A stretch of 64,000 nucleotides of DNA from a virus, in the IMG/VR virus record IMGVR_UViG_3300025133_000077, positions 1 to 64,000 of that record; one strand, 5' to 3'. Under the pieces are notes generated by a model. The model was given only the letters and a program-made list of their open reading frames with translations. It had not been told where the DNA came from and did not search any database. The translations under genes were made by a program, and so were the position numbers. Of the stretch, positions 1-27,209 are shown one piece after another (position 1 is the stretch's first letter; each line of letters opens with the position of its first letter).

Positions 1-1114
1 TCTCCACGTTGTCCCCGGCCTGGACCCGAACCGTTCCCGCGGCCTCCAGGAGCCACGACTTCTCCAGGGACCAGTTCACACTGCCGTCCTTGGTGATCTG
101 CATGGACACCTGCACAGCTGCTTCTTCGCCTTCCCCCTCGCCCTCCTTGTCCTGCGAGGTGCTGAACCCCAACAGAGAGTTGGCGGTGCCGGAGCGCGAC
201 ACCTTGAGCGAGGTGTCCTCCCCTGTCTGGGGGGTGGAGAGGCGGAGCTTGCCGTCGTCCAGGATCTTGTACTTCAGGCTCTCGCCCTGGAGAGCCGCGC
301 TCAGTACTCGCGAGAGCTCCTCTTCGTCCTCGGCATCTCCGTCGAGGGTGATGGTCTGCTCAGCCTTCTCTTCGCCTTCGATGGTCCGAGTCACGATGAG
401 GGTCTTGCCGTCCAGGAGCAGCGGGTAGGGGCCGAGGGTCACCTCCACCTGCGCCGGCTGAGCTCCGCCGTTGTAGACCGCCAAGCTGATGGCAGGGTCG
501 TCCGTCTCGTCCCCGTGATGACCCAGGACCATCTCCGCGACCGGGAAGGGGCTGTCCGCCTTCTCCTTCGCGTAGATCTTGCATCGAGTGGGCCGGTCCC
601 CGGTCGTCGTGGTCTCGTCTCGGTCGACCTCCCAGAGGAAGTCCCCTCCGAAGGTCCGCAGGTGGTAGGCCTCGCACATGTCCCGGATGATGTTGTTGAT
701 CGGGAGGTACAGCCGCTGGGCCAGGGGAGTGGCCTGGATCTGCACTACTCCGCCCCGCCGCACGAACACCGAGTTGCCGTCGCGGGTCCCCAGGTAGATG
801 TCCCCGGGGTTCATCGGCCGCCGGCCGGACTGGTAGCTGCCCTGCTCGTTCCAGGCTGCTCCGAAGCCGAGGATGAACGCCTTGTCGTCGAACTCGCTGG
901 ACTGGCAGACCCAACACATGCTGCCGGCCTCCGGCATCACCGAGATGCCTTCCCCCTCGGCGTGGTGCAGGTAGGGAGACATCAGCGGGATGCTCATCCA
1001 CCTCTTCGCGGAGTTCTGGGAGGCGACGTCGACGGAGTAGGTGCGGACGTTGACGTCGTAGACCACCCCGGACTCGATGACGGGCGTGCCGAACGAGGAG
1101 ACGGCTGCGGTCAC
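1..1114 (-). CDS. Putative baseplate spike/puncturing protein (gp5/gpV-like N-terminal OB fold); runs off the left edge
   Basis: Absent from the ORF track because there is no stop in the window. Hand translation gives MTAAVSSFGTPVIESGVVYDVNVRTYSVDV...SPYLHHAEGEGISVMPEAGSMCWVCQ...AFILGF, which resembles the gp5/VgrG OB-fold G..G...P..G..V.V pattern. The GTG start overlaps the upstream TGA and follows a GAGGAG SD. Confidence 0.6.
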   Translation of the reverse strand, partial: MTAAVSSFGTPVIESGVVYDVNVRTYSVDVASQNSAKRWMSIPLMSPYLHHAEGEGISVMPEAGSMCWVCQSSEFDDKAFILGFGAAWNEQGSYQSGRRPMNPGDIYLGTRDGNSVFVRRGGVVQIQATPLAQRLYLPINNIIRDMCEAYHLRTFGGDFLWEVDRDETTTTGDRPTRCKIYAKEKADSPFPVAEMVLGHHGDETDDPAISLAVYNGGAQPAQVEVTLGPYPLLLDGKTLIVTRTIEGEEKAEQTITLDGDAEDEEELSRVLSAALQGESLKYKILDDGKLRLSTPQTGEDTSLKVSRSGTANSLLGFSTSQDKEGEGEGEEAAVQVSMQITKDGSVNWSLEKSWLLEAAGTVRVQAGDNVE

Positions 1115-1467
1115 GGGCACTCCTCGGCGAGCCCCTGGGCTAGCAGCAGGCTCGCCAGGTCACCGGCGAGGGGCTCCCCGTGGCTGTCCATGGGGTACAC
1201 CAAGGCCAGCCAGCGGCCGTACTTGCCGCTCTTGTCCTTGAAGGTGCGGAGCAGCACGGGCTTGTTGAGCACGCGCTCCCTCACGAAGTCGCGGGCCTCT
1301 CGAGCCAGCGCCTTCGTCTCCTCGGTACCTCCTCGGAGCTCGGGCGTGTCGATGCCCTTGAGGCGGAGCTTCTGCTTCTTGAGCACGACGCCGAAGCCGA
1401 GGTCGATGTCCACGGTGAGGGTGTCGCCGTCGTAGACGGCCGTGACGAAGGCGCGGTACTCGTACAT
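1111..1467 (-). CDS. Thermonuclease (staphylococcal nuclease-like), no signal peptide
   Basis: Motifs YDGDT, LRLKGIDTPE and KYGRWLA. The ATG at 1467 overlaps the upstream stop (TGATG). Confidence 0.9.
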   Translation of the reverse strand: MYEYRAFVTAVYDGDTLTVDIDLGFGVVLKKQKLRLKGIDTPELRGGTEETKALAREARDFVRERVLNKPVLLRTFKDKSGKYGRWLALVYPMDSHGEPLAGDLASLLLAQGLAEECP

Positions 1468-4400
1468 CAGGTCCCCTTGCGGGCCCATCCCTGGCGCTTC
1501 TTGTAGCGGATCGGCTTCGGGCGGCCCTGCCGGCGGACGCTCTTCAGCAGCTTGTTGGCGTTGGTGTCCATCTGCTTCGGCAGGATGCCACGGCCCGTCT
1601 TGTCCTTGGCCAGCCCCTTCTTCGGGGCGACCCCGACGAGCCCTCGCTCCGGGATGTAGATCTTGCGGTAGTCCACCGTGACCTCTTCACCCGCCTCCAG
1701 CTCCCGCAGAGCCACCAGGTAGCGGGCCTTGCCCTTCTTCTTGATCTCGGCGTTGGGCTCGTAGCTGTGGTTCGTCTTCCGGCCCTCCGGCGACTGCATC
1801 CCGCGCTCGTCGAAGGCGACGGCGATGGGCTTGCCCTTCTTGACGGGCTCGTCGGTGAAGAAGCCCTTGCCGTGGATCTTGGACGGGTGGACGGCTGCCT
1901 TCTTCTGCAGGGGCAGGTGGTAGCGCAGGAACATCGAGCTCGGCTGGTACTTGTGCAGGAACTCCGACGGCACGTCGGAGGGCCTGAAGTCCTTCCCCAG
2001 CAACGGCTTCCCGTCCTTCGCAGCCCCGCGGTTGTGCTCCTTGCGGATCCTCCTCCGCTCAGCACGACTTCCGAAGCGGATGCCTGGCGTCTTCGCCCAG
2101 ACCGCCTTGCCCTGGTCGTCGGCCTCGGCCCCGACGTGGGTGGCTCCCAGGGACTTGCCGGCCTGCGCGATGCCCTTCATCCCCGCCGCTCCGATGCCAC
2201 GACGACGGAACTCCGGCTTCAGGTACATCGAATCCGCCTCGACGTGCCACTTGCCGCGCAGCAGCTTCTTCTTGAGCGTCAGGTCCGCGGTGCCGTACGA
2301 GAAAGCGTGATCGTCCTCTTGGAAAGGGTTCTTGTCGCCGTCGGTGCGCAGATGGATGGTGGCCTTGGGGCTCATGAACCCCAGCCCTCGGTACGTCTCC
2401 ACCTTGTGGAGCTTGGTGTGCTCGGGCAGGTGCTGCGGAATCGCCTTCTCCAGGTGCTCCCGCAGCACCTTCGGCCGATCCCGCCACCTGGTCTTCGCCA
2501 GCAGCTCGGAAGCCTCCTTCTTCCGCGGGGTCCGAGAAAGCACGAAGCGCTCCTGGGCCGTCAGCGCCTTCTTCCGCCCCTTCGCCACCTTGGCCATCAC
2601 CAAGGCCGTGGAGATGCGCTTCCCGCGCACCGAGCGGTTCCTGAGCGCCTTCTTGAAGTCCTCCACCGAGCAGGCGGAGAGCGAGCCGAAGAACTTGGGG
2701 TTGTCGTAGGCGCGCAGGTACTCCCGCTTCGCCTCCTTCGCCGAGGTGAAGCCGAGCATCACCTTGTCCTCGTCGAAGACCTTGAAGCCGGGCGCCTTCA
2801 TCTGGTGGACGATGTAGACGATGTCGCTCTTCTCGTTCGGGCCCACGTAGACGTCGACGGGGTCGCCGTCGGCGCCGAGGCTCCGCGGCACCTCGCCGTA
2901 GTGGTGCGGCATCACCGTCCGCCACTCCTTGCCCTTGGGGCCCTTGCCCTTGCGCACGGAGCCGCGCTTGTTCTCGATGTTGATCTTGATGCCCTGGAAG
3001 GTGCAGGTGCCCTGGTAGGGGAACTCCTTCCGGTTCCTCTTCGGGGGTGACGTGATCTTGACGGCCGCCGTCTTCGCCTGCCCCGGGGGCTTCGGAGGGG
3101 CGGGCGGCTTCGGCAGCTTGAAGATCTTGCCGCCGGACTCCACCTGCGCTGCTCCCTGCGGAGATCCGAACCGGCGAATCTGCTGCTGCAGGGCGGCCGG
3201 GGCGTGGACCATGCGCTGATCTTGCCCAGCGTCTGCGGCTGCGGTCCTGCCCCGGCGGAGGGCGGACCACGCCCTGTGCATGGGGCTGCCTCGGTACTGC
3301 TCCGTCGGGGCGTTCGAGATGCCTCCCTTCGCGCGGATGAAGCCGAATGCCTGCTTCTGCATCGCGGCCTCGCGAGCATGCCGCTCCCGCCGGGCGCGCA
3401 AGAGGCGGTGCACCCCGTACCCCGCCAGTGCCGTGGCACCGACTGCCGCTCCGCCGATAGCCACCTGTCTGCCTGTCGGCCTCCAGCCGCGCGCTGCGGA
3501 GGGGGGAGCCGAAGTAGGAGTCGGAGCTGGAGTGGGCCGGGAAGCCACCACCTTCTCGGCCACCTGCTTCGCCGCCGGGGCAGCGGCGGGAGCCGGGCGG
3601 GAAGCCACCACCTTCGCAGCTACCTGCTTCGCTGCGGGCGCGGACTTGGCCGCAGCCTCTTGCTTCACCTTCGCTGCAGCAGCGTCCCGCTGCTTCTGGA
3701 AGGCAACGGGACTGACCCCTGCTCGCCGGGCAGGACGCACCACGTCCCGGTGATACCTCTGGTTCTTCAGAGTCTGCTGGTGCCAGTCCAGTTCCTCCGT
3801 CGGCCTACCCGTCCTGACCTTCTCCTGGAGCAGCTCGTGCAGCTTCCTGTGCCGGTGCTCCACCGGGCCCGCTCGATTCTTGAGCAGGTGTCGACTGTGC
3901 CGAAGTTGCGACCTGTCGCCGCCTTCGCGGACCTTCTTCTCGAGGTCCAGGCTGTCCAGGTACTCCAGACGCTTCCACGTCTGCATGTCCTGGCGAGACG
4001 GTTCTCCCGGCCTCCACTTCGGCTCGGCAGGCCGCTTGAGGGTCGAGGGATCCCGCTCTCGCAGGTACCGCGGCTTCCCTGCCATCTTCTCGTGTCCGCC
4101 CAGCACCTGCCGCACCATCATCTGCACGACCGCCCAGAGCTCTGGGCGGTCCATGTCGTCAAGGTGCTGCTTGCCAACTGCCCGTTGACAATCCGCCATG
4201 AAGGCGGGGGAGTTGTCCCATTCCACCCCCAGGTGGTCAGCGATTGCGTGGACCTGCTCCTGGTCGAGCTCCGTGAAGCCGCGGCCCTTGCCCAGGTTCT
4301 GCAGCCACTCCGCGGTGTGCTGGGGCGTGCTGTACCTGCGCTCCTTCCACAGCTGTGGATGAAGGCTGTGGGCAACCCCGTGCCGCTCGAAGAGGGCGAT

Positions 4401-4769
4401 GGTCTGGTCGAGGCCGAACTTGTCGCAGGCCATCTCGAGGTGGATGGTCGGCCGGAAGTCCCGGAGGTACTCCTCGTCGGTGCGGGCGTCGACGACGTGA
4501 CCGAGGTCGTGGTAGCCGGACCAGGCCCGGTCCTCCAGGGAGACCGGGACTCCGCGCCGGCGCATGGCGAGGTAGATGACCTTGTTGACCTCGTCCTGCG
4601 CCGCGTAGCTGGGCATGTCCTCCAGGATGTGGAGGCGGTACCCGTACTTGGCGAGCTCCCCCTCGAGGTTCGAGAGCACGAGCTTCCACGCCCGGCCCTC
4701 CTCCCTCTCGGGAGGACGGTCTACCGCAGCTCCCGTCTTGACGAAGTCGACGAAGTCTTCAGTACGCAT
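1467..4769 (-). CDS. 1100-aa polyvalent protein: zincin-like N-terminus, Ala/Pro/Lys linker, hydrophobic helix, InPase (inorganic pyrophosphatase-like), GNAT acetyltransferase and SET domains
   Basis: HDLGH...E near the N-terminus. InPase: IENKRGSVR...HYGEVPRSLGADGDPVDVYVG...FDEDKVMLGF. GNAT motif A: YLKPEFRRRGIG. SET: SKIHGKGFFT...NHSYEPNA...ALRELEAGEEVTVDY. Confidence 0.8.
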   Translation of the reverse strand: MRTEDFVDFVKTGAAVDRPPEREEGRAWKLVLSNLEGELAKYGYRLHILEDMPSYAAQDEVNKVIYLAMRRRGVPVSLEDRAWSGYHDLGHVVDARTDEEYLRDFRPTIHLEMACDKFGLDQTIALFERHGVAHSLHPQLWKERRYSTPQHTAEWLQNLGKGRGFTELDQEQVHAIADHLGVEWDNSPAFMADCQRAVGKQHLDDMDRPELWAVVQMMVRQVLGGHEKMAGKPRYLRERDPSTLKRPAEPKWRPGEPSRQDMQTWKRLEYLDSLDLEKKVREGGDRSQLRHSRHLLKNRAGPVEHRHRKLHELLQEKVRTGRPTEELDWHQQTLKNQRYHRDVVRPARRAGVSPVAFQKQRDAAAAKVKQEAAAKSAPAAKQVAAKVVASRPAPAAAPAAKQVAEKVVASRPTPAPTPTSAPPSAARGWRPTGRQVAIGGAAVGATALAGYGVHRLLRARRERHAREAAMQKQAFGFIRAKGGISNAPTEQYRGSPMHRAWSALRRGRTAAADAGQDQRMVHAPAALQQQIRRFGSPQGAAQVESGGKIFKLPKPPAPPKPPGQAKTAAVKITSPPKRNRKEFPYQGTCTFQGIKINIENKRGSVRKGKGPKGKEWRTVMPHHYGEVPRSLGADGDPVDVYVGPNEKSDIVYIVHQMKAPGFKVFDEDKVMLGFTSAKEAKREYLRAYDNPKFFGSLSACSVEDFKKALRNRSVRGKRISTALVMAKVAKGRKKALTAQERFVLSRTPRKKEASELLAKTRWRDRPKVLREHLEKAIPQHLPEHTKLHKVETYRGLGFMSPKATIHLRTDGDKNPFQEDDHAFSYGTADLTLKKKLLRGKWHVEADSMYLKPEFRRRGIGAAGMKGIAQAGKSLGATHVGAEADDQGKAVWAKTPGIRFGSRAERRRIRKEHNRGAAKDGKPLLGKDFRPSDVPSEFLHKYQPSSMFLRYHLPLQKKAAVHPSKIHGKGFFTDEPVKKGKPIAVAFDERGMQSPEGRKTNHSYEPNAEIKKKGKARYLVALRELEAGEEVTVDYRKIYIPERGLVGVAPKKGLAKDKTGRGILPKQMDTNANKLLKSVRRQGRPKPIRYKKRQGWARKGT
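3538..3650 (-). repeat. Imperfect 60-bp tandem duplication in the linker of the polyvalent protein
   Basis: Two copies of cgggaagccaccaccttc...cacctgcttcgc 60 nt apart, encoding APAAKQVA(A/E)KVVASRP. Confidence 0.8.
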
Positions 4770-7700
4770 AGGGCTTCTTCTCCGTGCCCTTCCCGAACTG
4801 CGTGCCCAACACCAGCCCGGGGATCGGGTTCGTCCCGTGGATGTTGGTCTTCCAGCCCTGGGCTCCGCCCTCGGTGAGGGTCTTCTTCAGCTCACGGTAG
4901 TTGAGCCGGCCCATCCAGTCCTCGCTGGAGGCCATCGAGACCTCCTGGATGCCCTTGAGCACGGGGTCGTGGTCAGCTCCCTTGCCGCCCTTCTTCCCGA
5001 TCTCCCGGTTCACCTGCTCCAGCTTGGTGGTGGGGACCATGTCCCCTCGCAGGAAGCCGGTGTCCCCGGGCTGCTTGATCATCGAGAGGTTGGTGAGCGA
5101 GCGGACCACGGTCTCCATGTTCCGCTTCTTCACCTTGCCGCCGTAGGCGCCGTGCATCTCGTCGGTGAGGTAGCCCTTGACGCTCTCGATGCCGGCGACT
5201 TCCAGCAGGTGGTGCGGGTTCACGGGGCCGGAGGACAGAGCCTCGCCGAGAGCGACCTCGATCATCAGCGTGCCGCGGAGTGCGCGCATGACCTTGTCGG
5301 AGGGCTTGTTCCTGGCGGGGATGTAGTGGCTCTTCGGCGTGGGGAAGTACTTCCCGTACCGATCCTTGCCGCGGATGTGGACACGCCAGCCGCCGGCGGG
5401 GTCCACCTCGGCCTTCATGATCTGCCCCTTGTACGAGGAGATGGTGGCCTCGCCCGGCAGGGACTTCGTCAGGTGGAGCAGCTGCCCGAGCCGGGTGAAG
5501 GAGTCGGTGCGGCTGGCCTCGGCCTTGCTCACGACACCGCCGGTGTGGAAGGCGTTCATCGAGAGCTGCGTCGCCGGCTCGCCGATGGCCTGGGCCGCCC
5601 AGATGCCCACGTTCTCGCCGAGCGACGGGGAGCTCCCCGCCTCCGTGACGCCGTAGCACATCGCGCACACGCCCTCGGACTCCTCGCACTTCAGCGGGGA
5701 GCGGACGAGGACCTGGGCGACGCCCGAGTTCTTGATCTTGGTCAGCACCTCGGCGGTGAGCAAGGTCTTGCTGGGCACGTCGCCCTTCTTCAGCTTCACG
5801 GGGACCGCGGTGTAGCGGTCGTGGATCTCGGAGTCGGCCACCGACATCAGCACGCCGTTGGTGGTCCCGCAGTCGGGGGAGGTCACCAGCTGGTTGATGT
5901 TGGCGCTGACCAGGTCCTTGGTCAGCTCTCCGGGAGCCTGGGTGCCCTTCACCTTGCCCAGGGTGCCCATGCGAGCGCCGGACAGCGACGCCCAGTACTC
6001 CGCGGCGCTCAGCCCCTCGGAGTAGCTCTTCTTGATGGGGATCGGGACGGCGCTGCCGTTGGGGTCGGTGACCAGCACCGGGGCCAGAGTGAGCTGCTTG
6101 AACTGATCCCAGTTGCCTCGCGCGCCCGACTGCACCATCTCGTACATGCGGTTGCCTGTGCCCTTCATCTTCGCCTTGCCCTCGGCGTCGATCTTGTTCA
6201 GCGCCCCCATGTACGCGTCGACGACGGCCTTGTCGCGGCCCTTGCCCTTCTTCATCGCCTTCGCGGCCTCGCGGTCGGCCTCGGCGAAGTGCTTGTCGCG
6301 GATGTCCGGGCGGGACAGCACGTCCTTCAGGCTGAAGGAGTAGCCCGTGTCGTAGGTGTGCTTGTTGCCCAGCTGGTTCAGCTTGTTGACCGTGATCGAG
6401 AACCTCTGGGGGTGCGCCTTGGCCAACGGAGCCAGCAGGGAGGACACCGCGCCCTTGGTGAGCACCAGCGCCGGGTCCGCCAGGACCTTCTGCCTCTCCT
6501 TGGAGCCCGCGGGGAAGCAGTTGGCCAGCATCAGGCGGCCGACCGTGGTCTTCTGCTGGCCCGCCTCCTTGATCGTCTCGTCGATCTCCGGGGCCCAGTG
6601 CGAGCCTCCTCGCCACCACGCCGCGGTCTTGGTGATCACCGAGGAGCCCACCGTGATCTCCTCGGACGCGGTCACCTTCCCCTTCTTGTACGCCTTGATG
6701 GCGTCGTCGGCGGAGACGAAGGTCTTGCCCGTGCCCTTGCCCCACTTGCTCAGCTGGTAGAGGCCGAGCTGCGCCTCCTGGCTGGGCAGGTTCATCAGCC
6801 GGCCGGAGGAGGCGCTGAACAGGTTGTTCGAGGGCACCATCTTGCGGGCCTCGGCCACAGCCTCCTGGGTCAGTGGAACGTAGATCGCCGTGGTGTCGCC
6901 GTCGAAGTCCGCGTTGAACCCGCCGGTCACCAGGGGGTGGATGCGGATGGCCTTCCCCTTCACCAGCTTCGGGTGGAAGGCCATGATCCCGTGCTTGTGG
7001 AGCACGGGGTCACGCTTCATCAGCACCGGGCGGTCCCGCACGACGGACTCGAGCGCCTTCTTCGCCACCGGATCGTTCTGCTTCACCGCGAGCTGGGCAC
7101 GCAGCGGGGAGTAGCCGAAGACCTGGACCAGCTCCCGCACGACGAAGGGCTTGTACATCTCCATCGCCGCCTTCTGGGGCAGCCCCACCTCGTCCAGTCC
7201 CATCGACTGCTCGGGGATGATCGTGGAGCGCATGGACAGGTCCATGCGGCGGCCGATGATCTTGTTCTGGAAGTAGCCCGACTTCGGCTGCGTCCCCTTC
7301 ACGGTCTCGAGCACGCCGCGGTAGTGCCGGCCCTGGTACTTCTGGCCGTCCATGGTCAGCGCCTTGAGCCCGTCGTACAGCTCGCGGTACAGCGGCACCT
7401 TCTGGTTCTGGGGGAGGCCGGGGTCGAAGTCGCGGAGCTTCTGGTTCGTGAGGGACAGCCCCTTGTAGAGCTGGTTCACGTCGGCCGCCGTGGTGTTGCC
7501 GCTGTCCATCACGGACACGGGGCGGAACTTGGGCGGCATGATCGGGATGTGCTTCCGCATGTACGCGTCGGCGGGGTTGAGCTCGGCCGCCTTCAGCGCC
7601 TGGAGGTAGCGGACACGCCGGCGCAGCCGGCTGAGCTTGTACTTGCGCGCACCCTTCAGGGCGGTCAGCGTCTTCTTCAGCTCTGCGTCCAGGTCCAGGC

Positions 7701-10700
7701 CCCGGAGCGCCTTCTCGATGCCCTCGGCGCCCTTGCCTCCGCCGGGGACCTCCTTCTCGTGCCCCACGATCGCAGCGATGTCCCCCTTCTTGAGGTCCAG
7801 CAGCGACGTGATCGCGTTGTCGAACAGGGGGTTGGGCAGCGCTGTCTCCAGGGTCATGTGCCCCCAGCGCTGCTTGTCCGCGTGCTCCGGGTGCAGGGAG
7901 CCGAAGATCTTCTCGTCGAAGATGCCTCCCTTCTCCGGCTTCATGTCCTTGCCCCGGAACATCCGGCCCGGGTCAGCGACGTGCCCGTTGCTCAGCCCCA
8001 GGACCTGCTTGTCCGTGAGGGGCTTGAGCTGCATCTCGTCGCCCTTCTTCTCCACGTCGAGCCCCATGGTCTTCAGGAACCCCTCGAACTTGTGGTAGGT
8101 GAAGGGGATCTTGGGAGCGGGAAGGGCCTGGCCGGAGTGCAGGGCCGTCCACATGTCGGCGTTGTAGTCCGACTTGTGGGTGTACATCTCCCGGAGGTTG
8201 TGCCGCGCGCCGTGGGCGAGCATGGAGTACAGGCCGAGCGCACTCAGGGACTGGGCGCTGGTGCCACCTCCCTCCTTGGGGGAGCGGTCCAGGTTGTACG
8301 GCGCCGACGTGCCACCGGAGCGGGAGGTCATCTTCTTGGAGACCTTGTGCTTCATCTTGAAGATGTACTGGTTGCCGATCAGCACATCCCCCATCTTCTT
8401 GCCGGTGTCGGGGTCGAAGAGCTCCTCCGTGTCGGACAACCCGTGCTTCTTCAGCTCGGACTGGACCACTCGGCCGTAGTCGGCCTTGCCCTCCTCCTGG
8501 GGGAAGTTGTCGACGTGGTACGCCTTGCCGGACTTCTCCGCGATCTTCCCCGCCAGGGTCTCGAGCACCTGGCCGACGTTGATGCGGGACGGGACGCCGT
8601 GGGGGTTCAGGGCGATGTGGATCTGGTTGCCGTCCTTGGTGACCGGCATCTCCTTGTCGTGCACGATGCGGGAGATGATCCCCTTGTTGCCGTGGCGGCC
8701 GACCAGCTTGTCGCCGACCTGCGCCGGCTCCTCGGTCTTGATGTGGACCTCGATCTGCTTCGCCGTCCGGATGACGCGGACGACCTTGCCCTTGTAGCCC
8801 TTGTCCCAGAGCACCGATCGGTTCGAGTAGTCCTGCACCTTCGAGCGCTTCAGGGCCTGGTAGGCCGCGGCCTCCGAGCCGATCTCCCGCTTCTGCAGCT
8901 TGGCGATGAGGACGTCCCCCTCCTCGACGTCGGAACCGTCCTTGATCACCCCGCGGGGGTCGAGCTTGGCCATCTGCGCCGTCGTCACGGTGCCGGGCGA
9001 GATGTGGGCGAGGAACTTGGCCTTGTCGAACACCGAGTTGCGGTCGATGGTCGTCGACATCCGGTACATGTGCAGGCTGGTGAGCATCGAGGACGCGGAC
9101 TGGGAGATCACCACCCCGTCCTCGAAGTTGTAGCCCTTGAAGGGGACGTAGCCCACGCGGAGGTTCTTGCCGAGGGCGAAGGTCCCGTCCTTCGTGAAGT
9201 TGGTGTCGGCCAGGAGCTGCCCACGCTTCACGCGGTCGCCCACCTTCACCTTCAGGTGGGCGTCGAGGTAGGCCTCGTCCTGGTTGAGGGGGAAGTCCTT
9301 GTAGACCTGGACCTCGTGCTCCTTGCCCGTGCTGTCGCGGATGAACACCGCGTCCTTCACGATCTTCGTCACCACCCCGTTGACCGGCGCCTGGTGGGAG
9401 TTGAAGGAGCCCATCATCTGCTCGAAGGTGTGTCCCTCGCCGGCGTCGGTGGCGCTCTGCACCAGCGGGGCCTCCCGGTGCTTCAACGAGACCACCTGCT
9501 CCTGCATCCGGGACGCCGTCATCGTGCGGTTGCCCTGGTTGTTGTGCAGGAAGGGGATCAGGTTCGTGGGCAGGGAGTACATCCCCTTCGAGGTGAGCAT
9601 CACGTGCGTCACCTCGTTCCAAGGGCGCATCATCACGTCGTTGCCCTTGCCGGCGACGGCGACGTTCTTCGCGTTCTTGGGCAGAGGCATCTCGCCCGCC
9701 CACTTCACCTGGTCGGAGAAGGCCACGACGTACCCCTGGAAGTCGTGCGGAGCCACCTTGTCGATCTTCTTGGTCTTCCGGTTGTACAGGGAGACCCGGA
9801 GCTCTCGGCCCTCCTTCTCCACGCCCAAGGGCAGCTGCAGGGTGATGCCCGTCTTCGCGCCCTCCGGAGTGGTGATGGGGTCCAGGTAGTTCAGGTGCGT
9901 GTTGTTGATCCGCAGTGCCTCCTTCGGCACACGCTGCAGGTCGGACACGGCGCCGGGACCCATGATCGTGGTTCGCATCTGCCCCGACACGAACTCCAGC
10001 GGGTTCGTCTGGTTGGGCATCTGGGCCAGCGACGTGGAGAAGAATGAGCCCATCGGCTTGCCGAAGACCGCGGGGTTGACGATCTGTCTGACCGTGCCCT
10101 TCTTCCCGTCCAGGCCCTGCCGCAGTCGGCGGCCGATCTCAGCGCGGGAGCGGTGCAGTCGGTCGGAGAGGTGGTCCTCGATGGACAGCACGTCCTTGAA
10201 GGCCAGGGACTCGCGGTCGTCCGGGGCAGCCTCACCGCGGGCGAGGCTCAACAGCTTCTTGGAGGAGGTCAGCATGGCCTCCCCGTTCACCGCGGCGAAG
10301 GGCTTGCCGAGCGTGAGCTTGGTGCTGTCCTTCCGCAGCTCCGCCGCGGACAGCGTCTTCCTGACCTCGGCCTGCGCCTCAGCGAGCGTCTCCGCCGACC
10401 CTCCGGTGGTCCTCTTGAGGATCTTGTTCAGGGACTGCAGCTGCTTCTTCTCGTCCCCGTACTTCTTGACCGAGGCGTCGTAGATCTCCCCGCCCCACGC
10501 TTTCTTGATCTTGTCGTCGGGCTCCCCCATCGCCCGGAGCACCGGGTACAGGCCGATGTCCTCCATCGAGCCGAACTTCAAGGTGAAGACGCGCTTCTCG
10601 GGGTGGAAGTAGGACCAGAAGCGGTCCGCCTTCGCGCCCTCCCAGTTGTTGATGTTCCACTGGGTCACCAGGCGCCCCGCCTCGTCCTCCCGGTGGTAGA

Positions 10701-11058
10701 CGCCCGACTTCAGGCGGAACTGGTTGTCGACCTGCCGCTCCTTGCCGTCGACGATGTAGGAGTAGCGTCGGGTGATCTTGGGGATCTTGGCCACGGTGAT
10801 CGTGGACTTGTCGATCACCTCCCCCGTGGTCTTGTCGATCAGGGAGAGACGGGCCTTGACGGGCACTGCCCAGGAGCGCCCGTGCAGCTTCGCCTCCCGC
10901 TGCGAGCGGATGTCGTCGAGGCTCAGGTCGTCGGCGACCCAACACTTCGACATCTCGAGGCGGCGGTTCTGTCCCTCGAAGGGGAAGTGATCGGCGACAG
11001 CCTCCGCGACACGGCTCTTCAGCGTCTCGAAGGCCTCTTCTGGGTCGAGCTGGGCCAT
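4759..11058 (-). CDS. Phage two-barrel DNA-directed RNA polymerase, beta and beta' fused in one polypeptide (about 2099 aa)
   Basis: Beta motifs: QTNPL, TPEG, GKNLRVGY..GYNFEDG, GDKLVGRHGNKG, LNPHGVPSRINVGQ, KMKHKV..KMTSR. Beta' motifs: GGIFDEKIFG, GRRMDLS, RDPVLH, NADFDGD (6895-6915), SGARG, DCGT..RSPLKC..C..CYG, GEPATQL..FHTGG. Start moved to the ATG at 11058 (GAGGA SD). Confidence 0.95.
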   Translation of the reverse strand: MAQLDPEEAFETLKSRVAEAVADHFPFEGQNRRLEMSKCWVADDLSLDDIRSQREAKLHGRSWAVPVKARLSLIDKTTGEVIDKSTITVAKIPKITRRYSYIVDGKERQVDNQFRLKSGVYHREDEAGRLVTQWNINNWEGAKADRFWSYFHPEKRVFTLKFGSMEDIGLYPVLRAMGEPDDKIKKAWGGEIYDASVKKYGDEKKQLQSLNKILKRTTGGSAETLAEAQAEVRKTLSAAELRKDSTKLTLGKPFAAVNGEAMLTSSKKLLSLARGEAAPDDRESLAFKDVLSIEDHLSDRLHRSRAEIGRRLRQGLDGKKGTVRQIVNPAVFGKPMGSFFSTSLAQMPNQTNPLEFVSGQMRTTIMGPGAVSDLQRVPKEALRINNTHLNYLDPITTPEGAKTGITLQLPLGVEKEGRELRVSLYNRKTKKIDKVAPHDFQGYVVAFSDQVKWAGEMPLPKNAKNVAVAGKGNDVMMRPWNEVTHVMLTSKGMYSLPTNLIPFLHNNQGNRTMTASRMQEQVVSLKHREAPLVQSATDAGEGHTFEQMMGSFNSHQAPVNGVVTKIVKDAVFIRDSTGKEHEVQVYKDFPLNQDEAYLDAHLKVKVGDRVKRGQLLADTNFTKDGTFALGKNLRVGYVPFKGYNFEDGVVISQSASSMLTSLHMYRMSTTIDRNSVFDKAKFLAHISPGTVTTAQMAKLDPRGVIKDGSDVEEGDVLIAKLQKREIGSEAAAYQALKRSKVQDYSNRSVLWDKGYKGKVVRVIRTAKQIEVHIKTEEPAQVGDKLVGRHGNKGIISRIVHDKEMPVTKDGNQIHIALNPHGVPSRINVGQVLETLAGKIAEKSGKAYHVDNFPQEEGKADYGRVVQSELKKHGLSDTEELFDPDTGKKMGDVLIGNQYIFKMKHKVSKKMTSRSGGTSAPYNLDRSPKEGGGTSAQSLSALGLYSMLAHGARHNLREMYTHKSDYNADMWTALHSGQALPAPKIPFTYHKFEGFLKTMGLDVEKKGDEMQLKPLTDKQVLGLSNGHVADPGRMFRGKDMKPEKGGIFDEKIFGSLHPEHADKQRWGHMTLETALPNPLFDNAITSLLDLKKGDIAAIVGHEKEVPGGGKGAEGIEKALRGLDLDAELKKTLTALKGARKYKLSRLRRRVRYLQALKAAELNPADAYMRKHIPIMPPKFRPVSVMDSGNTTAADVNQLYKGLSLTNQKLRDFDPGLPQNQKVPLYRELYDGLKALTMDGQKYQGRHYRGVLETVKGTQPKSGYFQNKIIGRRMDLSMRSTIIPEQSMGLDEVGLPQKAAMEMYKPFVVRELVQVFGYSPLRAQLAVKQNDPVAKKALESVVRDRPVLMKRDPVLHKHGIMAFHPKLVKGKAIRIHPLVTGGFNADFDGDTTAIYVPLTQEAVAEARKMVPSNNLFSASSGRLMNLPSQEAQLGLYQLSKWGKGTGKTFVSADDAIKAYKKGKVTASEEITVGSSVITKTAAWWRGGSHWAPEIDETIKEAGQQKTTVGRLMLANCFPAGSKERQKVLADPALVLTKGAVSSLLAPLAKAHPQRFSITVNKLNQLGNKHTYDTGYSFSLKDVLSRPDIRDKHFAEADREAAKAMKKGKGRDKAVVDAYMGALNKIDAEGKAKMKGTGNRMYEMVQSGARGNWDQFKQLTLAPVLVTDPNGSAVPIPIKKSYSEGLSAAEYWASLSGARMGTLGKVKGTQAPGELTKDLVSANINQLVTSPDCGTTNGVLMSVADSEIHDRYTAVPVKLKKGDVPSKTLLTAEVLTKIKNSGVAQVLVRSPLKCEESEGVCAMCYGVTEAGSSPSLGENVGIWAAQAIGEPATQLSMNAFHTGGVVSKAEASRTDSFTRLGQLLHLTKSLPGEATISSYKGQIMKAEVDPAGGWRVHIRGKDRYGKYFPTPKSHYIPARNKPSDKVMRALRGTLMIEVALGEALSSGPVNPHHLLEVAGIESVKGYLTDEMHGAYGGKVKKRNMETVVRSLTNLSMIKQPGDTGFLRGDMVPTTKLEQVNREIGKKGGKGADHDPVLKGIQEVSMASSEDWMGRLNYRELKKTLTEGGAQGWKTNIHGTNPIPGLVLGTQFGKGTEKKPYAY

Positions 11059-11086
11059 AGATCCTCGGGCTGACGGACGTGGGGGC

Positions 11087-11116
11087 AGTGTAAGGGACCC
11101 TTGCAGTACAGCACAA
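11087..11116 (-). promoter_or_regulatory. Sigma70-like promoter upstream of the RNAP unit
   Basis: TTGTGC-N18-TACACT on the minus strand in the divergent intergenic region. Confidence 0.4.
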
Positions 11117-11131
11117 TCACGGAGGATGCCA

Positions 11132-11146
11132 CGGCATAAGCAGAGT
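11132..11146 (+). promoter_or_regulatory. Candidate phage-RNAP promoter motif CGGCATAAGnAnAGT
   Basis: 13 of 15 nt identical to 16372-16386. The TAAG ends 36 nt before the first plus-strand start codon. Confidence 0.5.
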
Positions 11147-11176
11147 AGAGGAACACCCCTCGTAGGAGACAAAGCA

Positions 11177-11308
11177 GTGGCCAACGATCAGCAGAAGAAG
11201 AAGACGCCCCCCAAGGTCGAGAAGCGCTCCAGCGTGCGCCGCTTCTCGAACAACGTGAAGAAGGCGGTGGGCGGTCACCGCCGTCCCGCCCCCAAGAAGA
11301 AGGAGTAG
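11177..11308 (+). CDS. Small, very basic hypothetical protein (43 aa)
   Basis: AGGAG SD before GTG; MANDQQKKKTPPKVEKRSSVRRF...; GC3-rich codons. Confidence 0.55.
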   Translation: MANDQQKKKTPPKVEKRSSVRRFSNNVKKAVGGHRRPAPKKKE

Positions 11309-11312
11309 GACC

Positions 11313-11435
11313 GTGAGGTGGTTGCTCCTGTCGGGCTTCTACTTCGGCTTCCTCCTCGCACTCCACGACGGCATCCAGCTCGAGAAGATTCGAGTGCGTG
11401 CCCACATCGCGAAGGACGAGGACGAGGAGAAGTAG
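11313..11435 (+). CDS. Small membrane protein (40 aa)
   Basis: Below the ORF-track cutoff. MRWLLLSGFYFGFLLALHDGIQLEKIRVRAHIAKDEDEEK has an SD and exactly fills the gap between neighbours. Confidence 0.55.
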   Translation: MRWLLLSGFYFGFLLALHDGIQLEKIRVRAHIAKDEDEEK

Positions 11436-11750
11436 ATGGCCTACTGCCCCCTGTTGCCGGGGCACTGCCGGAACGCCACCGACTGTGGCGGGTGCAGCAC
11501 GTTCTCCGACGTGCTGCACCCGTACGCAGACGAGCTGTTCTGGGTCTGTCCCGATTGTCTTACGCCCCGTCGAGAGCCCAGCGGCTTCACCCTCCTGGGC
11601 CACTACCAGGAGATCGACTGCGACATCTGCAGCAAGCTCTCCAACCTGTGCCAAGCGGCTCTGCCTCCCGACGTACTGACGGCAGCCAAGTGGTTCGAGA
11701 TGCTCCAGCGCATCCTGGAGAAGGCGACCGAGGAGAACGAAGATGGATGA
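11436..11750 (+). CDS. Cys-rich (Zn-finger-like) hypothetical protein
   Basis: C..C...CGGC, CPDC and CDIC...C motifs; GAGGAG SD. Confidence 0.7.
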   Translation: MAYCPLLPGHCRNATDCGGCSTFSDVLHPYADELFWVCPDCLTPRREPSGFTLLGHYQEIDCDICSKLSNLCQAALPPDVLTAAKWFEMLQRILEKATEENEDG

Positions 11751-12108
11751 CTGCTGTGCCCAGTGCCAGGAGCAGTTCGAGCTCCGGGAGACCGGCATCC
11801 TTGAGGTCTACGAGGGGGAGGTCGGCTTCAATGACGAGGGGGAGGTCGCCTTCATCCCCGACGACTTCGCCCAGTACATCCACACCAAGTGCGCGTCGCG
11901 GTACTTCAACCCCGGCGAAGAGGCCGAGGTTCGCAGGGAGATCCGCGAGGAGGTGCTCTTGGATGGAGCCGCCCAGGTGAACGCCTACCTGGGTGGCGTG
12001 GAGAAGATGCGGCAGCGCGAAGAGGAAGAAGAGGAAGTCGCCGAGGAGTGGGTTCGCCCGCCCGCTCGGCGACGCTCCTCTCGTGGGGGGAGGTGGGGAG
12101 GACGATGA
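11743..12108 (+). CDS. Hypothetical protein with CxxC...HxxC Zn motif, acidic segment and Arg/Gly tail
   Basis: CAQC...HTKC; coupled to the upstream gene. Confidence 0.7.
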   Translation: MDDCCAQCQEQFELRETGILEVYEGEVGFNDEGEVAFIPDDFAQYIHTKCASRYFNPGEEAEVRREIREEVLLDGAAQVNAYLGGVEKMRQREEEEEEVAEEWVRPPARRRSSRGGRWGGR

Positions 12109-12141: not shown

Positions 12142-14148
12142 TCACACCAGCGCCCTGCCGGGGTCTCGCCGGGGCGGCTTCTGCGACGGGAGCGGAGACT
12201 GCTGCGCGTCGAGCGGGTCCCGGGTCTCCTTGGAGCCCTGCATGATCTGCAAGACCAGCGAGTAGAAGTGCGGCTGCGTCGACTTCATCTTCTGCATCGC
12301 CGCGTAGGCGTCCGGCGGCTTCGTCTTGAGCAGCTTCCGCAGCTCGTTCGCCGTCCGCTTGGCCACGTAGAAGACGTCCTGACCCGTGCCCGGGTCAGCC
12401 GTCAGCTGAGAGGACGCCTCCTGCGGGACGCCTGTGACCGGAGAGGACTGCCCGTTCTCCGGGTACAGCTTGGCCCCTGCCGGGCCCTCGACGGGGCCGC
12501 TGCCGCCCTCCTGGCCACCCTCCTGGCCAGGGCCGAGCTGCATGGCTCCGCCCCCGCCCACGAGGTCGGACTGGGCCGCCTGCATGTAGAGCTGCATGAC
12601 CTGCTGAGCCTCGCCCTGGCCGACGGCCGCGGAGACCTGGGCCCGTCGCTGGTCCTCGGCCTGCTTCCTCGACTCGGAGCTGAGCAGCAGCCGCTCGGTC
12701 TCGTAGTCCTCGTTGAGTTCGCGCAGGAAGGTGTGGTCGGAGATCTTGTTGGCCTGGTTGGCCTGGAAGTAGATCATCGTGCGCTGCAGGTCGTCCGCCA
12801 TCTTGAAGCGGCGGAACTTCTTGCCCACGCGGGGCCAGCCCAACCACGCGCCGATGGAGTCGAACACCCAGTCCGTGAGGCCCTGGATGTCGGCGCGGTA
12901 GTTGATGAACTCGTTCTCTAGGTTCCGCATGGAGACCTGCGTGCCGGAGTAGCCGAGGCCGCCGAAGATAAACTCCTGCGGGACGTGGAGGCCGGCGACG
13001 ATGTTCTCTGCCCAGACGCGGTACTCCTGGTGGAGCACCATCGCTCGGCCCTGGCCGCCGACCATCTGGTGTCCCACGGGGAGGGGCAGGATCGGGATGT
13101 AGTTGGGGTCCCGCCGCCACCGCTCGATCTCCTCCTCCATCTGGCTCTTCCAGCCGGTGAGGGGCATCGTGGTGTACGGGTCGCTGGTCCCGGAGCCGGG
13201 CTGCGGGAAGATCATGCGCAGCGGCACGATGTGCTCGCGGGCGATGGCTTCCTGGCCCTTCTTGAGGATCTGCAGGTAGTAGGAGTCCTTGAGCACCGGC
13301 AGGATGCGGGACAGACCCCAGCCCTTGTCGTTCCCGTTGCCCGAGATGGACGGGCGCCGCATGTGGAAGAGCTGGCCCGGGGCGAACCGGAGGCCGGTCT
13401 TCTTGCGGGCGGCCTCGACGAAGACGTTGGGGATCTCCTCCTGAAGGTGGTTCCTTCCGATCATCAGCCGCGCCCGCGTGCGGGGGCTCATCTCGTAGTA
13501 GTACCTGCAGTGCCCGGTCTCCTCGTTCACATCGATGGCGATGCGCTCGGGGTCCCACCGGACGAGCCCGATCTTGTACGGGCTCCGCTGCCAGACATCG
13601 AGGGGCTTGGCGTTGCCCACCTTCCTGCACTTGGGGCAGGTGAGGCGGTAGTTCAGCTCCCGCCACTTGTAGTGGGGCCGCAGCTTCTTCGCCGGCGCCT
13701 GGTACTTGCAGTGGTTGCACTGCAGGAACTTCACGAAGGGGTAGTTGATCGAGGTGAAGGAGTTGCCGTAGCACTGGTAGTCCAGGCCGGTCTCCACCTG
13801 GAAGCTGCGGAACTTCAGGATCTGGTCCTTGAGGTACTTGTACTTCCGCGCCACCGCCTCGTGCTTGCTCTCGAACACCAGGTCGGTGATCGGGTACGAG
13901 GCCATCTTGTAGATGACCGCGTTCACCAGCGGGTTGGTGAAGAAGTAGTAGCGGCACCAGCGGAACAGCTTCTTCTGCGACGAGGGCAGGTAGGTGTGCG
14001 CTCCGTCGAAGAAGGGGCTGGGGTACGGCACGCCGGCCCGGCCCGAGGCCCCGAAGAAGCCCGAGCGCAGGTTGGCGAAGCCGCTGCCTCCGGCGGTGCC
14101 GCCGCTCACCCCGTACGTGGGCAGCCCGAAGTCGAATCCCTCAGCCAT
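12142..14148 (-). CDS. Putative portal protein with Zn-ribbon insertion
   Basis: Portal-like pattern: RWCRYYFFTNPLVNAVIYKMASYPI, DYQCYGNSF, LFHMRRP...GWGLSRILPVLK, IVAGLHVPQEFIFGG; Gly/Gln/Pro-rich C-terminal tail. Confidence 0.7.
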   Translation of the reverse strand: MAEGFDFGLPTYGVSGGTAGGSGFANLRSGFFGASGRAGVPYPSPFFDGAHTYLPSSQKKLFRWCRYYFFTNPLVNAVIYKMASYPITDLVFESKHEAVARKYKYLKDQILKFRSFQVETGLDYQCYGNSFTSINYPFVKFLQCNHCKYQAPAKKLRPHYKWRELNYRLTCPKCRKVGNAKPLDVWQRSPYKIGLVRWDPERIAIDVNEETGHCRYYYEMSPRTRARLMIGRNHLQEEIPNVFVEAARKKTGLRFAPGQLFHMRRPSISGNGNDKGWGLSRILPVLKDSYYLQILKKGQEAIAREHIVPLRMIFPQPGSGTSDPYTTMPLTGWKSQMEEEIERWRRDPNYIPILPLPVGHQMVGGQGRAMVLHQEYRVWAENIVAGLHVPQEFIFGGLGYSGTQVSMRNLENEFINYRADIQGLTDWVFDSIGAWLGWPRVGKKFRRFKMADDLQRTMIYFQANQANKISDHTFLRELNEDYETERLLLSSESRKQAEDQRRAQVSAAVGQGEAQQVMQLYMQAAQSDLVGGGGAMQLGPGQEGGQEGGSGPVEGPAGAKLYPENGQSSPVTGVPQEASSQLTADPGTGQDVFYVAKRTANELRKLLKTKPPDAYAAMQKMKSTQPHFYSLVLQIMQGSKETRDPLDAQQSPLPSQKPPRRDPGRALV

Positions 14149-15018
14149 CTACGCCGCCTTGCTCTGGAGGAGCCACGAGAACTCTCGGGCCTGCACAGCT
14201 TCCTGCTGGCGCCGGTGCACCATGTAGTTGTGGGCCACGAGCAGCTTGCCGCAGACGACATCCTCGCGCACATCGTCGCTCAGGTCTGCCCCTTCCCCAC
14301 CGTGCACCTGCCTCCACCGGGCGGCGACCGGGCGGGGGTCGTTCTTGTAGAAGGTCGAGACGTTGCGGCCTACCTCGTCCGGGATGCCCCGCGCCGGCCT
14401 GCCGTTCACCGTCTTCTCGTCCATGTCCGGGTTGAACCGCCCCACGCAGACGTCGCACCGCCCATCCTCGAGGTCGTCGTCGTCCTCGTTGCCGCAGTCC
14501 CCACAGCGGTAGGTGGGCTCGGCCACCACGCGCTGCGCGACGGCGAGGGGGCCCGGCAGGAACCAGACGCCGCGCTCCAGAGCCGAGGCCGCCATGAACC
14601 GGACCACCTCCTCCTGGTACGGCTCCTTGCGGATGTCCGAGACCATGTCGACGGCCGCCATCATCTGGGCAACTGTCGGTTGCTGAAGTGTCATGAAGTC
14701 GGGGGTGTTGTTGTTCAGCGCCTGCACCAGAGGGGCAAACACCGACCACGACGACCAGAAGCCGTTGGCCAGCAGCAGGTTGCGGATCGCCTGGATCTTG
14801 TTCTTGTTCAGCGCGCTGACCGTCACCCTGTGGGGACGGGAGTAGTGCTTCTGGAAGAGCTCCGAGAAGTCCTGCTCGATCTCGTACCAGAGCACATCGG
14901 AGTCCCACTCCAGCCAGTCCGACTTGAACACCGCGAAGAGGAGCCCGGCCAACACCGCCGGGTGCGCGTCGTGGTAGCCGAAGAAGAGGGCCGGCGACTC
15001 AGGCGCTGATGGTTCCAC
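14149..15018 (-). CDS. Hypothetical head-module protein with CxxC...CxxC Zn ribbon
   Basis: GTG at 15018 with GGAG SD; CGDC...CDVC; lies between the KxA-rich protein and the portal. Confidence 0.65.
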   Translation of the reverse strand: MEPSAPESPALFFGYHDAHPAVLAGLLFAVFKSDWLEWDSDVLWYEIEQDFSELFQKHYSRPHRVTVSALNKNKIQAIRNLLLANGFWSSWSVFAPLVQALNNNTPDFMTLQQPTVAQMMAAVDMVSDIRKEPYQEEVVRFMAASALERGVWFLPGPLAVAQRVVAEPTYRCGDCGNEDDDDLEDGRCDVCVGRFNPDMDEKTVNGRPARGIPDEVGRNVSTFYKNDPRPVAARWRQVHGGEGADLSDDVREDVVCGKLLVAHNYMVHRRQQEAVQAREFSWLLQSKAA

Positions 15019-16371: not shown

Positions 16372-16386
16372 CGGCATAAGGACAGT
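16372..16386 (+). promoter_or_regulatory. Candidate phage-RNAP promoter motif CGGCATAAGnAnAGT heading the replication operon
   Basis: Matches 11132-11146. The TAAG ends 32 nt before the ATG at 16413. Confidence 0.5.
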
Positions 16387-26603: not shown

Positions 26604-26639
26604 AAAATAACTCATTTCGGATTGGGGTATGCTGGCGCC

Positions 26640-27209
26640 ATGAAGAGATTCTCGGACCGTTTGAAGGAGAAGGGCGTCGTAATGCGCCCCGCCAGCGTCC
26701 CCAACCCCATCGTGCGCTCCGAGGAAGGCGTGTGGGTGATCGTAGAGGCCCGGGACAGGTCAGAGCGCTGCCGCTTCCTCGTAGACGAGGACGTCTATGC
26801 CGCGCTGGTGGCTCCCCACAGGTGGAACGTGGGGGGCGTAGAGCGCAACCGCGTCTACCACTCGGGGCGCACGCCCTCCGGCAACTCCACGGTGCTGCTG
26901 GCAAGGTTCATCTTCGACCCGCCCGCAGACCGCGAGGTCGACCACATCAACGGTGATCCCCTGGACAATCGCTACGAGAACCTGCGGGTCGCGACCCGCA
27001 AGCAGAACGAGGAGAACCGCCATGTGTCGCGGGGCAAGAGCAAGTACCGCGGCGTGCACCCCTGCAAGCAGACGGGACGATGGAGGGCCCAGGTGACCCA
27101 CAACTACACGGCGCACAAGAGCCCTCGCTTCGACACCGAGGAAGAGGCTCGTGCATGGGCAGTCGCAAAGCGGGACGAGCTGTTCACCCACCACCGGCAG
27201 TCCTCATGA
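26640..27209 (+). CDS. HNH endonuclease with C-terminal AP2 domain (free-standing homing endonuclease)
   Basis: VDHINGDPLDNRYENLR; SKYRGV...GRWRAQV...FDTEEEA. Confidence 0.9.
   Translation: MKRFSDRLKEKGVVMRPASVPNPIVRSEEGVWVIVEARDRSERCRFLVDEDVYAALVAPHRWNVGGVERNRVYHSGRTPSGNSTVLLARFIFDPPADREVDHINGDPLDNRYENLRVATRKQNEENRHVSRGKSKYRGVHPCKQTGRWRAQVTHNYTAHKSPRFDTEEEARAWAVAKRDELFTHHRQSS

Follow-up and report, generated by a model that had tools for sequence, protein, structure and literature searches.

Organisation of the RNA polymerase locus

The first 64 kb of a 74.7-kb virus contig in IMG/VR (IMGVR_UViG_3300025133_000077; completeness about 40% according to CheckV), which is the whole stretch of DNA analysed here and is referred to below as the window, begins with four closely packed minus-strand genes, the largest of which encodes a single-chain RNA polymerase (RNAP) of 2099 amino acids (aa; 4759-11058). 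Downstream of it lie the genes for a 1100-aa protein that carries several unrelated enzymatic domains, hereafter termed the polyvalent protein (1467-4769), for a 125-aa staphylococcal-type nuclease (1111-1488, with an alternative start at 1467) and for a central baseplate spike (2-1114). A portal gene is located upstream on the same strand (12142-14148). The identical 2099-aa RNAP is also present on a record derived from a 188-kb contig; the source phage is roughly 188 kb in size, and the region considered here is the downstream half of a conserved block of virion genes. The GC content of the window is about 66%, and GC by codon position cleanly separates real genes from shadow frames. Three blocks make up the contig: a minus-strand block running from 16.3 kb to position 1, a plus-strand block that contains the replication genes (16.4-34.5 kb) and a second minus-strand block extending from 34.8 kb to the contig end.

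The four genes at the start of the window are tightly joined. The RNAP stop codon and the ATG of the polyvalent protein lie within an 11-nt overlap, the polyvalent stop and the nuclease start share the sequence TGATG (or overlap by 22 nt if an upstream ATG is used), and at the last junction, from nuclease to spike, stop and start are combined in GTGA, preceded by GAGGAG. No minus-strand terminator-like sites were found within 1-11058. An earlier sequence-only reading of this DNA had described four coupled minus-strand genes, set apart from the replication operon, that encode a fused RNAP, a protein with InPase, GNAT and SET domains, a nuclease and, judged by eye, a gp5-like spike. This description proved accurate: all three junctions are stop/start overlaps, the replication genes are confined to the plus-strand block, Rpb2 and Rpb1 domains share one reading frame, the InPase, GNAT and SET domains all score above their Pfam cut-offs with signature motifs intact, the nuclease has the motifs of its family, and the spike is matched to known central spikes with a Foldseek probability of 1.0.

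A single-chain RNA polymerase

The RNAP contains Pfam matches to Rpb2_6 (E 5e-61), Rpb1_2 (E 2e-27) and Rpb1_5 (E 5e-22) together with further Rpb1 and Rpb2 domains. The NADFDGD motif is found at aa 1382-1388 (6895-6915), an RHGNKG motif is also present, and the catalytic centre is intact. Comparison with solved bacterial beta' chains gave an E value of 2e-120, the aligned part starting at about beta' residue 170-250. At least 831 homologues were scored, and among the 120 that were listed nearly all possess both Rpb2 and Rpb1 domains and are approximately 2020-2970 aa in length. Hundreds of metagenomic proteins come closest in sequence, and the ones listed have beta and beta' in one chain. The loci retrieved for these relatives are viral contigs, and with cellular chains the alignment reaches no more than about E 1e-120.

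On the basis of its homology to both beta and beta', its NADFDGD motif and its location on a contig with a portal, a spike and a baseplate-wedge domain, we assign the enzyme, as a prediction from sequence, to the mReC type. This lineage was defined by Weinheimer and Aylward (2020; PMC7481178), who write of beta and beta' subunits; in the accessible part of that paper fusion of the subunits is mentioned only for the crAss-like enzyme.

The N-terminal 170-250 residues of cellular beta', which include a zinc-binding region, have no counterpart in this RNAP. Only six cysteines are present in the chain, four of which (aa 1730, 1791, 1798 and 1801) are invariant across 15 family members and may be regarded as a second beta' zinc site that has been retained. 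In-frame LAGLIDADG, Hom_end or intein-splicing insertions swell the RNAP and portal genes of many relatives, taking the RNAP to about 2970 aa and the portal to about 1950 aa (L004, L005, L023, L027, L040, L046 and L057, and proteins P0010, P0018, P0039, P0040 and others).

The portal and the central spike

The 668-aa product of the gene at 12142-14148 has no family match. When its AlphaFold 2 model was searched with Foldseek, the top 40 matches were all portal or neck-connector entries (probability 0.97-1.0, most 1.0), including those of HK97, lambda, T4, G20c and SPP1, although the mean predicted local distance difference test score (pLDDT) of the model was only 62.5. The protein is 31% identical (E 8e-76) to gp204 of Salmonella phage Arash, which is annotated as portal protein, and with 641 homologues it is conserved as strongly as the RNAP. 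The structural model and the identity to Arash gp204 show the protein to be the portal, and the local gene order is therefore portal, RNAP, spike.

The true start of the spike gene is a GTG at position 1114. A 99%-identical record has a full length of 481 aa; the contig end cuts the gene, so that the window holds only aa 1-371 and the C-terminal 110 aa lie outside it. The AlphaFold model of the spike has a pLDDT of 77, exceeding 90 at about aa 11-120 and remaining mostly above 80 to aa 210, with mixed values in the C-terminal half. Foldseek matched it with a probability of 1.0 to the R2 pyocin spike, P2 gpV, phi92 gp138 and VgrG (4s37, 3qr8, 3pqi and 4mtk) and also to the baseplate spikes of PhiTE, E217 and Mu. 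The model is therefore that of a predicted central spike of the gpV/gp5/VgrG type, in which an N-terminal OB-fold is followed by a beta-structured spike domain.

The nuclease encoded between the polyvalent protein and the spike belongs to the SNase family (PF00565, E 6e-9; PHROG 452, E 2e-29) and possesses the DGDT, IDTPE and YGR motifs.

Four small plus-strand genes (11178-12108) separate the portal from the RNAP in this phage. They encode two very short proteins, one basic (43 aa) and one hydrophobic (40 aa), together with two Cys-rich proteins that resemble zinc ribbons (104 and 121 aa), and were recognised by direct reading of the sequence, supported for 11436-11750 by a coding pattern of GC at the third codon position (GC3). 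Similar sequence is found at the same place between portal and RNAP in the closest relative, L003. A minus-strand open reading frame (ORF) that overlaps them (11019-11798) lacks a coding GC3 pattern and was rejected as spurious, the four plus-strand genes fitting better. These genes cut the RNAP off from the next minus-strand gene, so that in this phage the polymerase gene stands at the head of a separate unit.

Conservation of the portal-RNAP-spike order and a variable slot

Relatives of the locus comprise five close loci (L003-L007) and 79 more distant viral loci, which were scanned with profiles of the portal, the N-terminal domain of the spike, the RNAP and the N-terminal module of the polyvalent protein. 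Synteny was counted in the 35 loci that have a single-chain RNAP, 33 of which have enough flanking sequence for the spike to be sought. The portal is located upstream on the same strand in 34 of the 35 loci, and 29 of the 33 have the spike downstream of the RNAP. The distance from the RNAP stop codon to the spike start is at most 100 bp in 16 of these, 0.4-1 kb in seven and more than 1.6 kb in a further six. Among the close relatives, L004 and L005 (44% identity) have nothing between the two genes. The N-terminal module of the polyvalent protein was detected in only three of the scanned loci (L003, L006 and L007), and a tblastn search of L003-L007 revealed no counterpart of the nuclease, the remaining loci not having been searched for this gene.

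Because the slot is empty in 16 loci and its cargo is shuffled in L003, L006 and L007, the comparison shows that the conserved unit is portal-RNAP-spike, in many cases with overlapping stop and start codons, and that the polyvalent protein is a shuffled, lineage-specific occupant of a variable slot. The synteny of the four genes, which had been put forward as a check on the sequence-only reading, is thus retained for the RNAP and the spike, and breaks down for the polyvalent protein and the nuclease. Placement of the RNAP on the structural-gene strand was borne out, since the gene is flanked by portal and central spike in an order that is conserved in relatives; the proposed "kit" of RNAP, polyprotein and nuclease was not, as the four genes are not conserved as a unit.

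Six of the seven loci with a gap of 0.4-1 kb encode a small Gly/Ala-rich protein of 120-155 aa in the slot (L010, 7451-7837; L023, 17760-18143; L025, 16122-16523; L035, 16142-16609; L047, 16172-16558; L032, 16315-16674), and the seventh, L040, has a 280-aa ORF. Four of the six proteins (L010, L023, L025 and L047) share an N-terminal motif of the F-x-DELEKI type, which is looser in L035. No known family was found for these proteins, and common descent with the polyvalent proteins is not shown, since a hidden Markov model built from them did not match the latter. The gap between RNAP and spike in a few relatives contains ORFs whose first residues resemble homing endonucleases when inspected by eye, no family search having been made.

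Domain architecture of the polyvalent protein

From N to C terminus the polyvalent protein consists of an N-terminal module, a Gly-rich hydrophobic segment, an InPase domain, a GNAT domain, a SET domain and a basic tail. The InPase domain (aa 586-709; 2643-3014) matches PF18823 with 134.8 bits (E 2e-39, cut-off 26.8), and its acidic metal-binding signature is intact, with DGDPVDV (2850-2870) and FDEDK both present. The PHROG families matched by this region are annotated as minor head and virion structural proteins. The GNAT acetyltransferase core (aa 835-885; 2115-2267), with RRRGIG at 2190-2207, exceeds the cut-off for PF00583 (E 3e-5 to 9e-5), and the SET methyltransferase domain (aa 984-1034; 1668-1820) exceeds that for PF00856 (E 4e-7 to 2e-6), its NHSYEPN (1752-1772) and GEEVTVDY motifs both being intact.

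The N-terminal module (aa 30-230; 4080-4682) was recognised by its conservation in relatives. It is 55-76% identical in L003, L006 and L007, in which the HDLGH motif (4497-4511) is invariant, and it is rare, occurring in only seven protein clusters in a database of 5.8 billion sequences, in proteins of 605-1925 aa. Searches of Pfam, even at E 5, and a PDB profile search returned no match to the module. The Atlas gave a faint, sub-threshold lead to Peptidase_M78, and we do not call the module a peptidase. The Gly/Ala-rich hydrophobic segment (aa 436-453; 3411-3464), read directly from the sequence, is a candidate membrane-inserting Gly-zipper. The homologue in L003 (P0394) has a sub-threshold match to Gly-zipper_YMGG (E 1e-4, 22.4 bits compared with a cut-off of 28.9), located at aa 234-296 in its N-terminal part and hence away from the position that aligns with the aa 436-453 segment.

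Four domain architectures share the N-terminal module among the relatives. The closest relative, L003, whose RNAP is 79% identical, encodes a 1710-aa protein in which the module and a Gly-zipper are followed by an NlpC/P60-type peptidase, GNAT and SET; the protein has no InPase domain, and no nuclease gene was found in this locus. In L006 and L007 (57% identity) the module precedes a glycosyltransferase-like domain, and P0395, a member of one of the seven clusters, has the arrangement DUF5661-InPase-GNAT-GNAT-SET. With at least two unrelated effector domains, a setting among virion genes and variable architectures, the protein of this phage is, as far as can be predicted from such features, a member of the polyvalent class. 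No packaging domain such as MuF was detected in it by Pfam and profile searches. Polyvalent proteins are predicted to be packaged and are typically encoded among virion genes, and the InPase family has been described as one of their components (Iyer et al. 2017; PMC5512222).

Among the records of cultured phages, 461 carry the InPase domain, most of them those of PB1-like Pseudomonas phages and Escherichia coli phages of the Wifcevirus type, in which the proteins are annotated as minor head, portal or structural protein. To our knowledge these two groups of phages have no RNAP of their own. One Vibrio phage that encodes an RNAP also has an InPase gene. Because the domain is common in phages and is absent from the polyvalent protein of the closest relative, it is probably not a dedicated helper of the RNAP. 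Two roles have been offered for InPase domains in polyvalent proteins, namely an attack on nucleotide-like signals or the clearance of pyrophosphate (PPi), which would aid early replication or transcription (PMC5512222), and it is possible that the domain clears PPi for early transcription in this phage. The suggestion of the sequence-only reading that a pyrophosphatase-like domain pulls the RNAP forward thus corresponds to a published general hypothesis that is not specific to this locus, and the domain is missing in L003 and most of the family.

Proposed delivery of the RNAP by the virion

We favour, with some reservation, the view that the RNAP is delivered by the virion. Its embedding between portal and spike persists to a divergence of about 30% identity, and in Arash and Vibrio phage D69 the portal gene, a short ORF and the RNAP gene make up a single unit whose members touch or overlap. 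In Arash particles the RNAP protein gp206 was the most detected, with 3516 spectra compared with 1333 for the major capsid protein. The list further includes gp216, the sigma factor gp10 (100% coverage), the portal gp204 and a pyrophosphatase, gp23, and its authors propose a function in early transcription (PMC10585845). RNAP subunits and a sigma factor are likewise present in the particles of YerA41 (PMC7354516). The contig encodes a sigma-70-family gene of its own beyond the window (contig 65272-66291, equivalent to L002 1272-2291, minus strand), in which region 3 scores above the Pfam cut-off and region 4 is weak. Among 50,697 phage records, this sigma factor matches only Arash and D69-like phages, the match in Arash being to a gene annotated as RNA polymerase sigma factor that by its position is taken to be gp10. 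Since the matches are limited in this way, the proteomic result concerns homologous, probably orthologous, parts, and the presence of homologous RNAP and sigma factor in the particles of relatives makes virion delivery plausible.

Several observations weigh against this view. The particle lists of Arash and YerA41, with 116 and 63 proteins respectively, include many replication enzymes (PMC10585845, PMC7354516), so that proteins abundant during infection may simply have been carried over, a point made by the authors of the Arash study themselves. The YerA41 RNAP genes are classed as early transcripts (PMC7354516), which fits an enzyme made after infection; the supplement for this phage contains no entries for "portal" or for neighbouring gene numbers. 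For the present phage, packaging is argued from the genes around the RNAP and from relatives with an identity of only about 30%. The RNAP gene is preceded by an intergenic region of its own (11059-11177), in which TTGTGC-18-TACACT, a poor sigma70-like match, is directed toward it, and its expression need not be strictly late. Moreover, no similarity of the N-terminal module of the polyvalent protein to known packaging domains was detected in Pfam, the Atlas or the PDB.

Alternatively, the RNAP may not be packaged, in which case host RNAP would transcribe its gene early, the enzyme and its sigma factor would then serve middle and late genes, its position in the locus would be accidental and its detection in particles would reflect contamination. 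T7 RNAP and the non-virion enzyme of phiKZ provide models for such a mode of action. The early class of the YerA41 genes (PMC7354516), the numerous clearly non-structural enzymes in both particle proteomes and the weak sigma70-like site directly 5' of the RNAP are all in keeping with this alternative, as is the presence of only one RNAP gene on the 74.7-kb contig, a single enzyme then having to serve all phases. It is nevertheless hard to explain, without co-expression with virion genes, why an overlapping portal-RNAP-spike order should be kept to about 30% identity, and the RNAP scores above the major capsid protein at the top of the Arash particle list, alongside full coverage of sigma. An unpackaged RNAP therefore strikes us as a serious but doubtful explanation.

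The fate of the polyvalent protein and the nuclease is a separate question. Their genes might occupy a permissive insertion site flanked by two essential genes, and their products, made during infection, might act in the cytoplasm, in host takeover or counter-defence and in the degradation of host nucleic acids, rather than as virion cargo. The site does appear to tolerate insertions, given the frequency of inteins in the RNAP and portal genes of the family, and homing-endonuclease-like ORFs (identified by eye) occupy the same gap in other relatives; nor was any known packaging domain such as MuF detected. However, the architecture fits a class that is typically encoded among virion genes (PMC5512222), delivered effectors usually combine, as is seen here, an N-terminal module that is kept with C-terminal cargo that is exchanged, and the InPase region matches minor head and virion structural families. 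We consider a cytoplasmic role for the two proteins a serious but less likely alternative.

It is most improbable that the genes form one functional kit, in which the pyrophosphatase drives a packaged RNAP and the transferases serve the same programme together with the nuclease: the translational coupling of the four genes, the joining of InPase, GNAT and SET on the same module in P0395, the annotated pyrophosphatase in Arash particles and the InPase gene of one RNAP-encoding Vibrio phage would be in its favour, but nothing separates spike and RNAP in 16 of 29 loci and only a small protein or ORF does so in seven more (Gly-rich in six), the slot in L003 holds NlpC/P60-GNAT-SET, other relatives carry glycosyltransferase-like cargo, and most of the phages in the 461 InPase records have, as far as is known, no RNAP of their own.

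If the RNAP is delivered by the virion, the enzyme and its sigma factor would be produced alongside the virion proteins, be loaded into the particle and leave it with the DNA at ejection, and the delivered RNAP would start phage transcription without the host RNAP. The polyvalent protein may be an accessory ejected effector, perhaps processed after delivery, that would hydrolyse PPi or a nucleotide-like signal and acetylate and methylate host or phage proteins. Both it and the nuclease would represent optional, lineage-specific cargo rather than obligate partners of the RNAP.

The conserved coupling of RNAP and spike genes might mirror a physical arrangement, in which the RNAP and the product of the slot are loaded beside the central spike or in the tail channel and are the first proteins to enter the cell, the HDLGH module acts as a loading or self-processing adaptor for swapped enzymes, and the small Gly-rich slot proteins constitute a minimal membrane-inserting form. 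Cargo that rides behind the spike in contractile injection systems offers an analogy for loading on the spike side. We regard this arrangement as speculative and improbable.

Comparison with known systems

The closest described systems are those of Arash (gp206 and gp216, with sigma gp10) and the Vibrio phages D69, D148 and D181, whose RNAP is about 30% identical over almost its whole length. Arash and D69 resemble the present phage in having the portal directly upstream, a homologous sigma factor, helicases among the divergent neighbours and a genome of about 180-190 kb. They differ in that the last third of beta' is encoded by a separate gene behind an insertion, whereas here the enzyme is one uninterrupted 2099-aa chain, and in that one small same-strand ORF links portal and RNAP, which in this phage are parted by the four plus-strand genes. 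BLAST searches found neither a spike homologue nor a polyvalent protein beside the RNAP in Arash and D69, whereas both are present here.

The logic proposed for N4 (gp50), phiKZ-like and crAss-like (gp66) phages, that of an early RNAP which is encoded among virion genes, packaged and ejected, is the same, although packaging of the present enzyme is a prediction. The N4 virion RNAP is a T7-like single-subunit enzyme. The phiKZ RNAP has split subunits and functions without a sigma factor (PMC7824862), and the crAss enzyme is described as too diverged for easy detection by sequence homology (PMC7481178). The enzyme of this phage, by contrast, closely resembles cellular beta/beta' (E 2e-120 against beta' chains of known structure) and is accompanied by a sigma-70-family factor.

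With the polyvalent proteins described previously (PMC5512222), the protein of this phage shares a multi-enzyme chain encoded among virion genes, the PF18823 InPase domain, GNAT and shuffled domains. It differs from them in lacking MuF, a portal fusion or a recognised metallopeptidase, and in possessing a rare and undescribed N-terminal module. The term "SET domain" does not occur in the main text of that study, and a position between an RNAP and a central spike is not described there.

The mReC lineage of RNAPs (PMC7481178), the presence of RNAP in particles (PMC10585845, PMC7354516) and the idea of a polyvalent InPase (PMC5512222) are all published already, and the statement of the sequence-only reading that no phage with this combination had been described was overstated, the RNAP lineage, its presence in particles and the link between InPase and PPi being on record. 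Of that reading, the domain and spike calls and the position of the RNAP among virion genes are supported, and packaging has a precedent in the particles of relatives; the kit, the dedicated InPase and the claim of novelty are not supported. The new elements are the count of portal-RNAP-spike conservation, the variable effector slot and the rare HDLGH module with its shuffled cargo, including InPase-GNAT-SET.

If the RNAP is truly in the particle, a very large and mostly uncultured family would represent a fourth independent solution to host-independent early transcription, and the only one to pair a near-bacterial core enzyme with a sigma factor. Arash and the D69-like Vibrio phages can be cultured, which makes the idea directly testable. 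The variable slot would provide a defined place in which to seek first-strike effectors, and the small module may direct proteins into the particle; the slot also allows the same RNAP to be compared between naturally occurring phages that have a pyrophosphatase beside it and others that do not.

Candidate promoters and neighbouring genes

The divergent region upstream of the RNAP contains GGCATAAG (11133-11140), directed toward the small plus-strand genes. The same motif heads the other plus-strand unit beside the block (16373-16380), and a variant, GGGATAAG, is found at 29873-29880. GGCATAAG is positioned 30-45 nt 5' of the first start codon, is preceded by GAGGAT in two divergent regions and is kept at homologous places in L003, L006 and L007. 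It is a candidate phage-specific promoter, although such regulatory hints are weak. Sigma70-like sites, their two elements 18 nt apart, precede the minus-strand units, as in the case of TTGACA-18-CATCAT (16351-16322) before the portal operon.

Two genes located 5' of the portal on the minus strand (14149-16300), encoding proteins of 332 aa and about 430 aa, are conserved in L003, L004, L006 and L007. Searches of Pfam, PHROGs and PDB sequences returned no match for either, nor for three genes that lie downstream of the spike in L003.

The replication block on the plus strand encodes an SF2 helicase, a DnaB-like helicase, PolA, an HNH endonuclease and a RecA-like protein. A gene resembling HNH-AP2 homing endonucleases (26622-27209) is located directly 3' of the PolA gene. 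The minus-strand structural block beyond it includes the gene for a giant protein with a baseplate-wedge domain in addition to the sigma-70-family gene. Very large genes occur in series at 35084-58660, with products of 1838, 1568, 761, 2140 and 921 aa; family matches were almost nil, the exceptions being a PKD domain and an N-terminal baseplate-wedge (gpJ-like) domain, and these genes probably encode baseplate and fibre proteins. Near the sigma gene, and also beyond the window on the minus strand, a gene at contig 67433-70792 (L002 3433-6792) encodes a 1119-aa protein with a lysin domain. The particles of Arash likewise hold a cell wall hydrolase, gp8, and the sigma factor gp10, the numbers of the two genes being close together.

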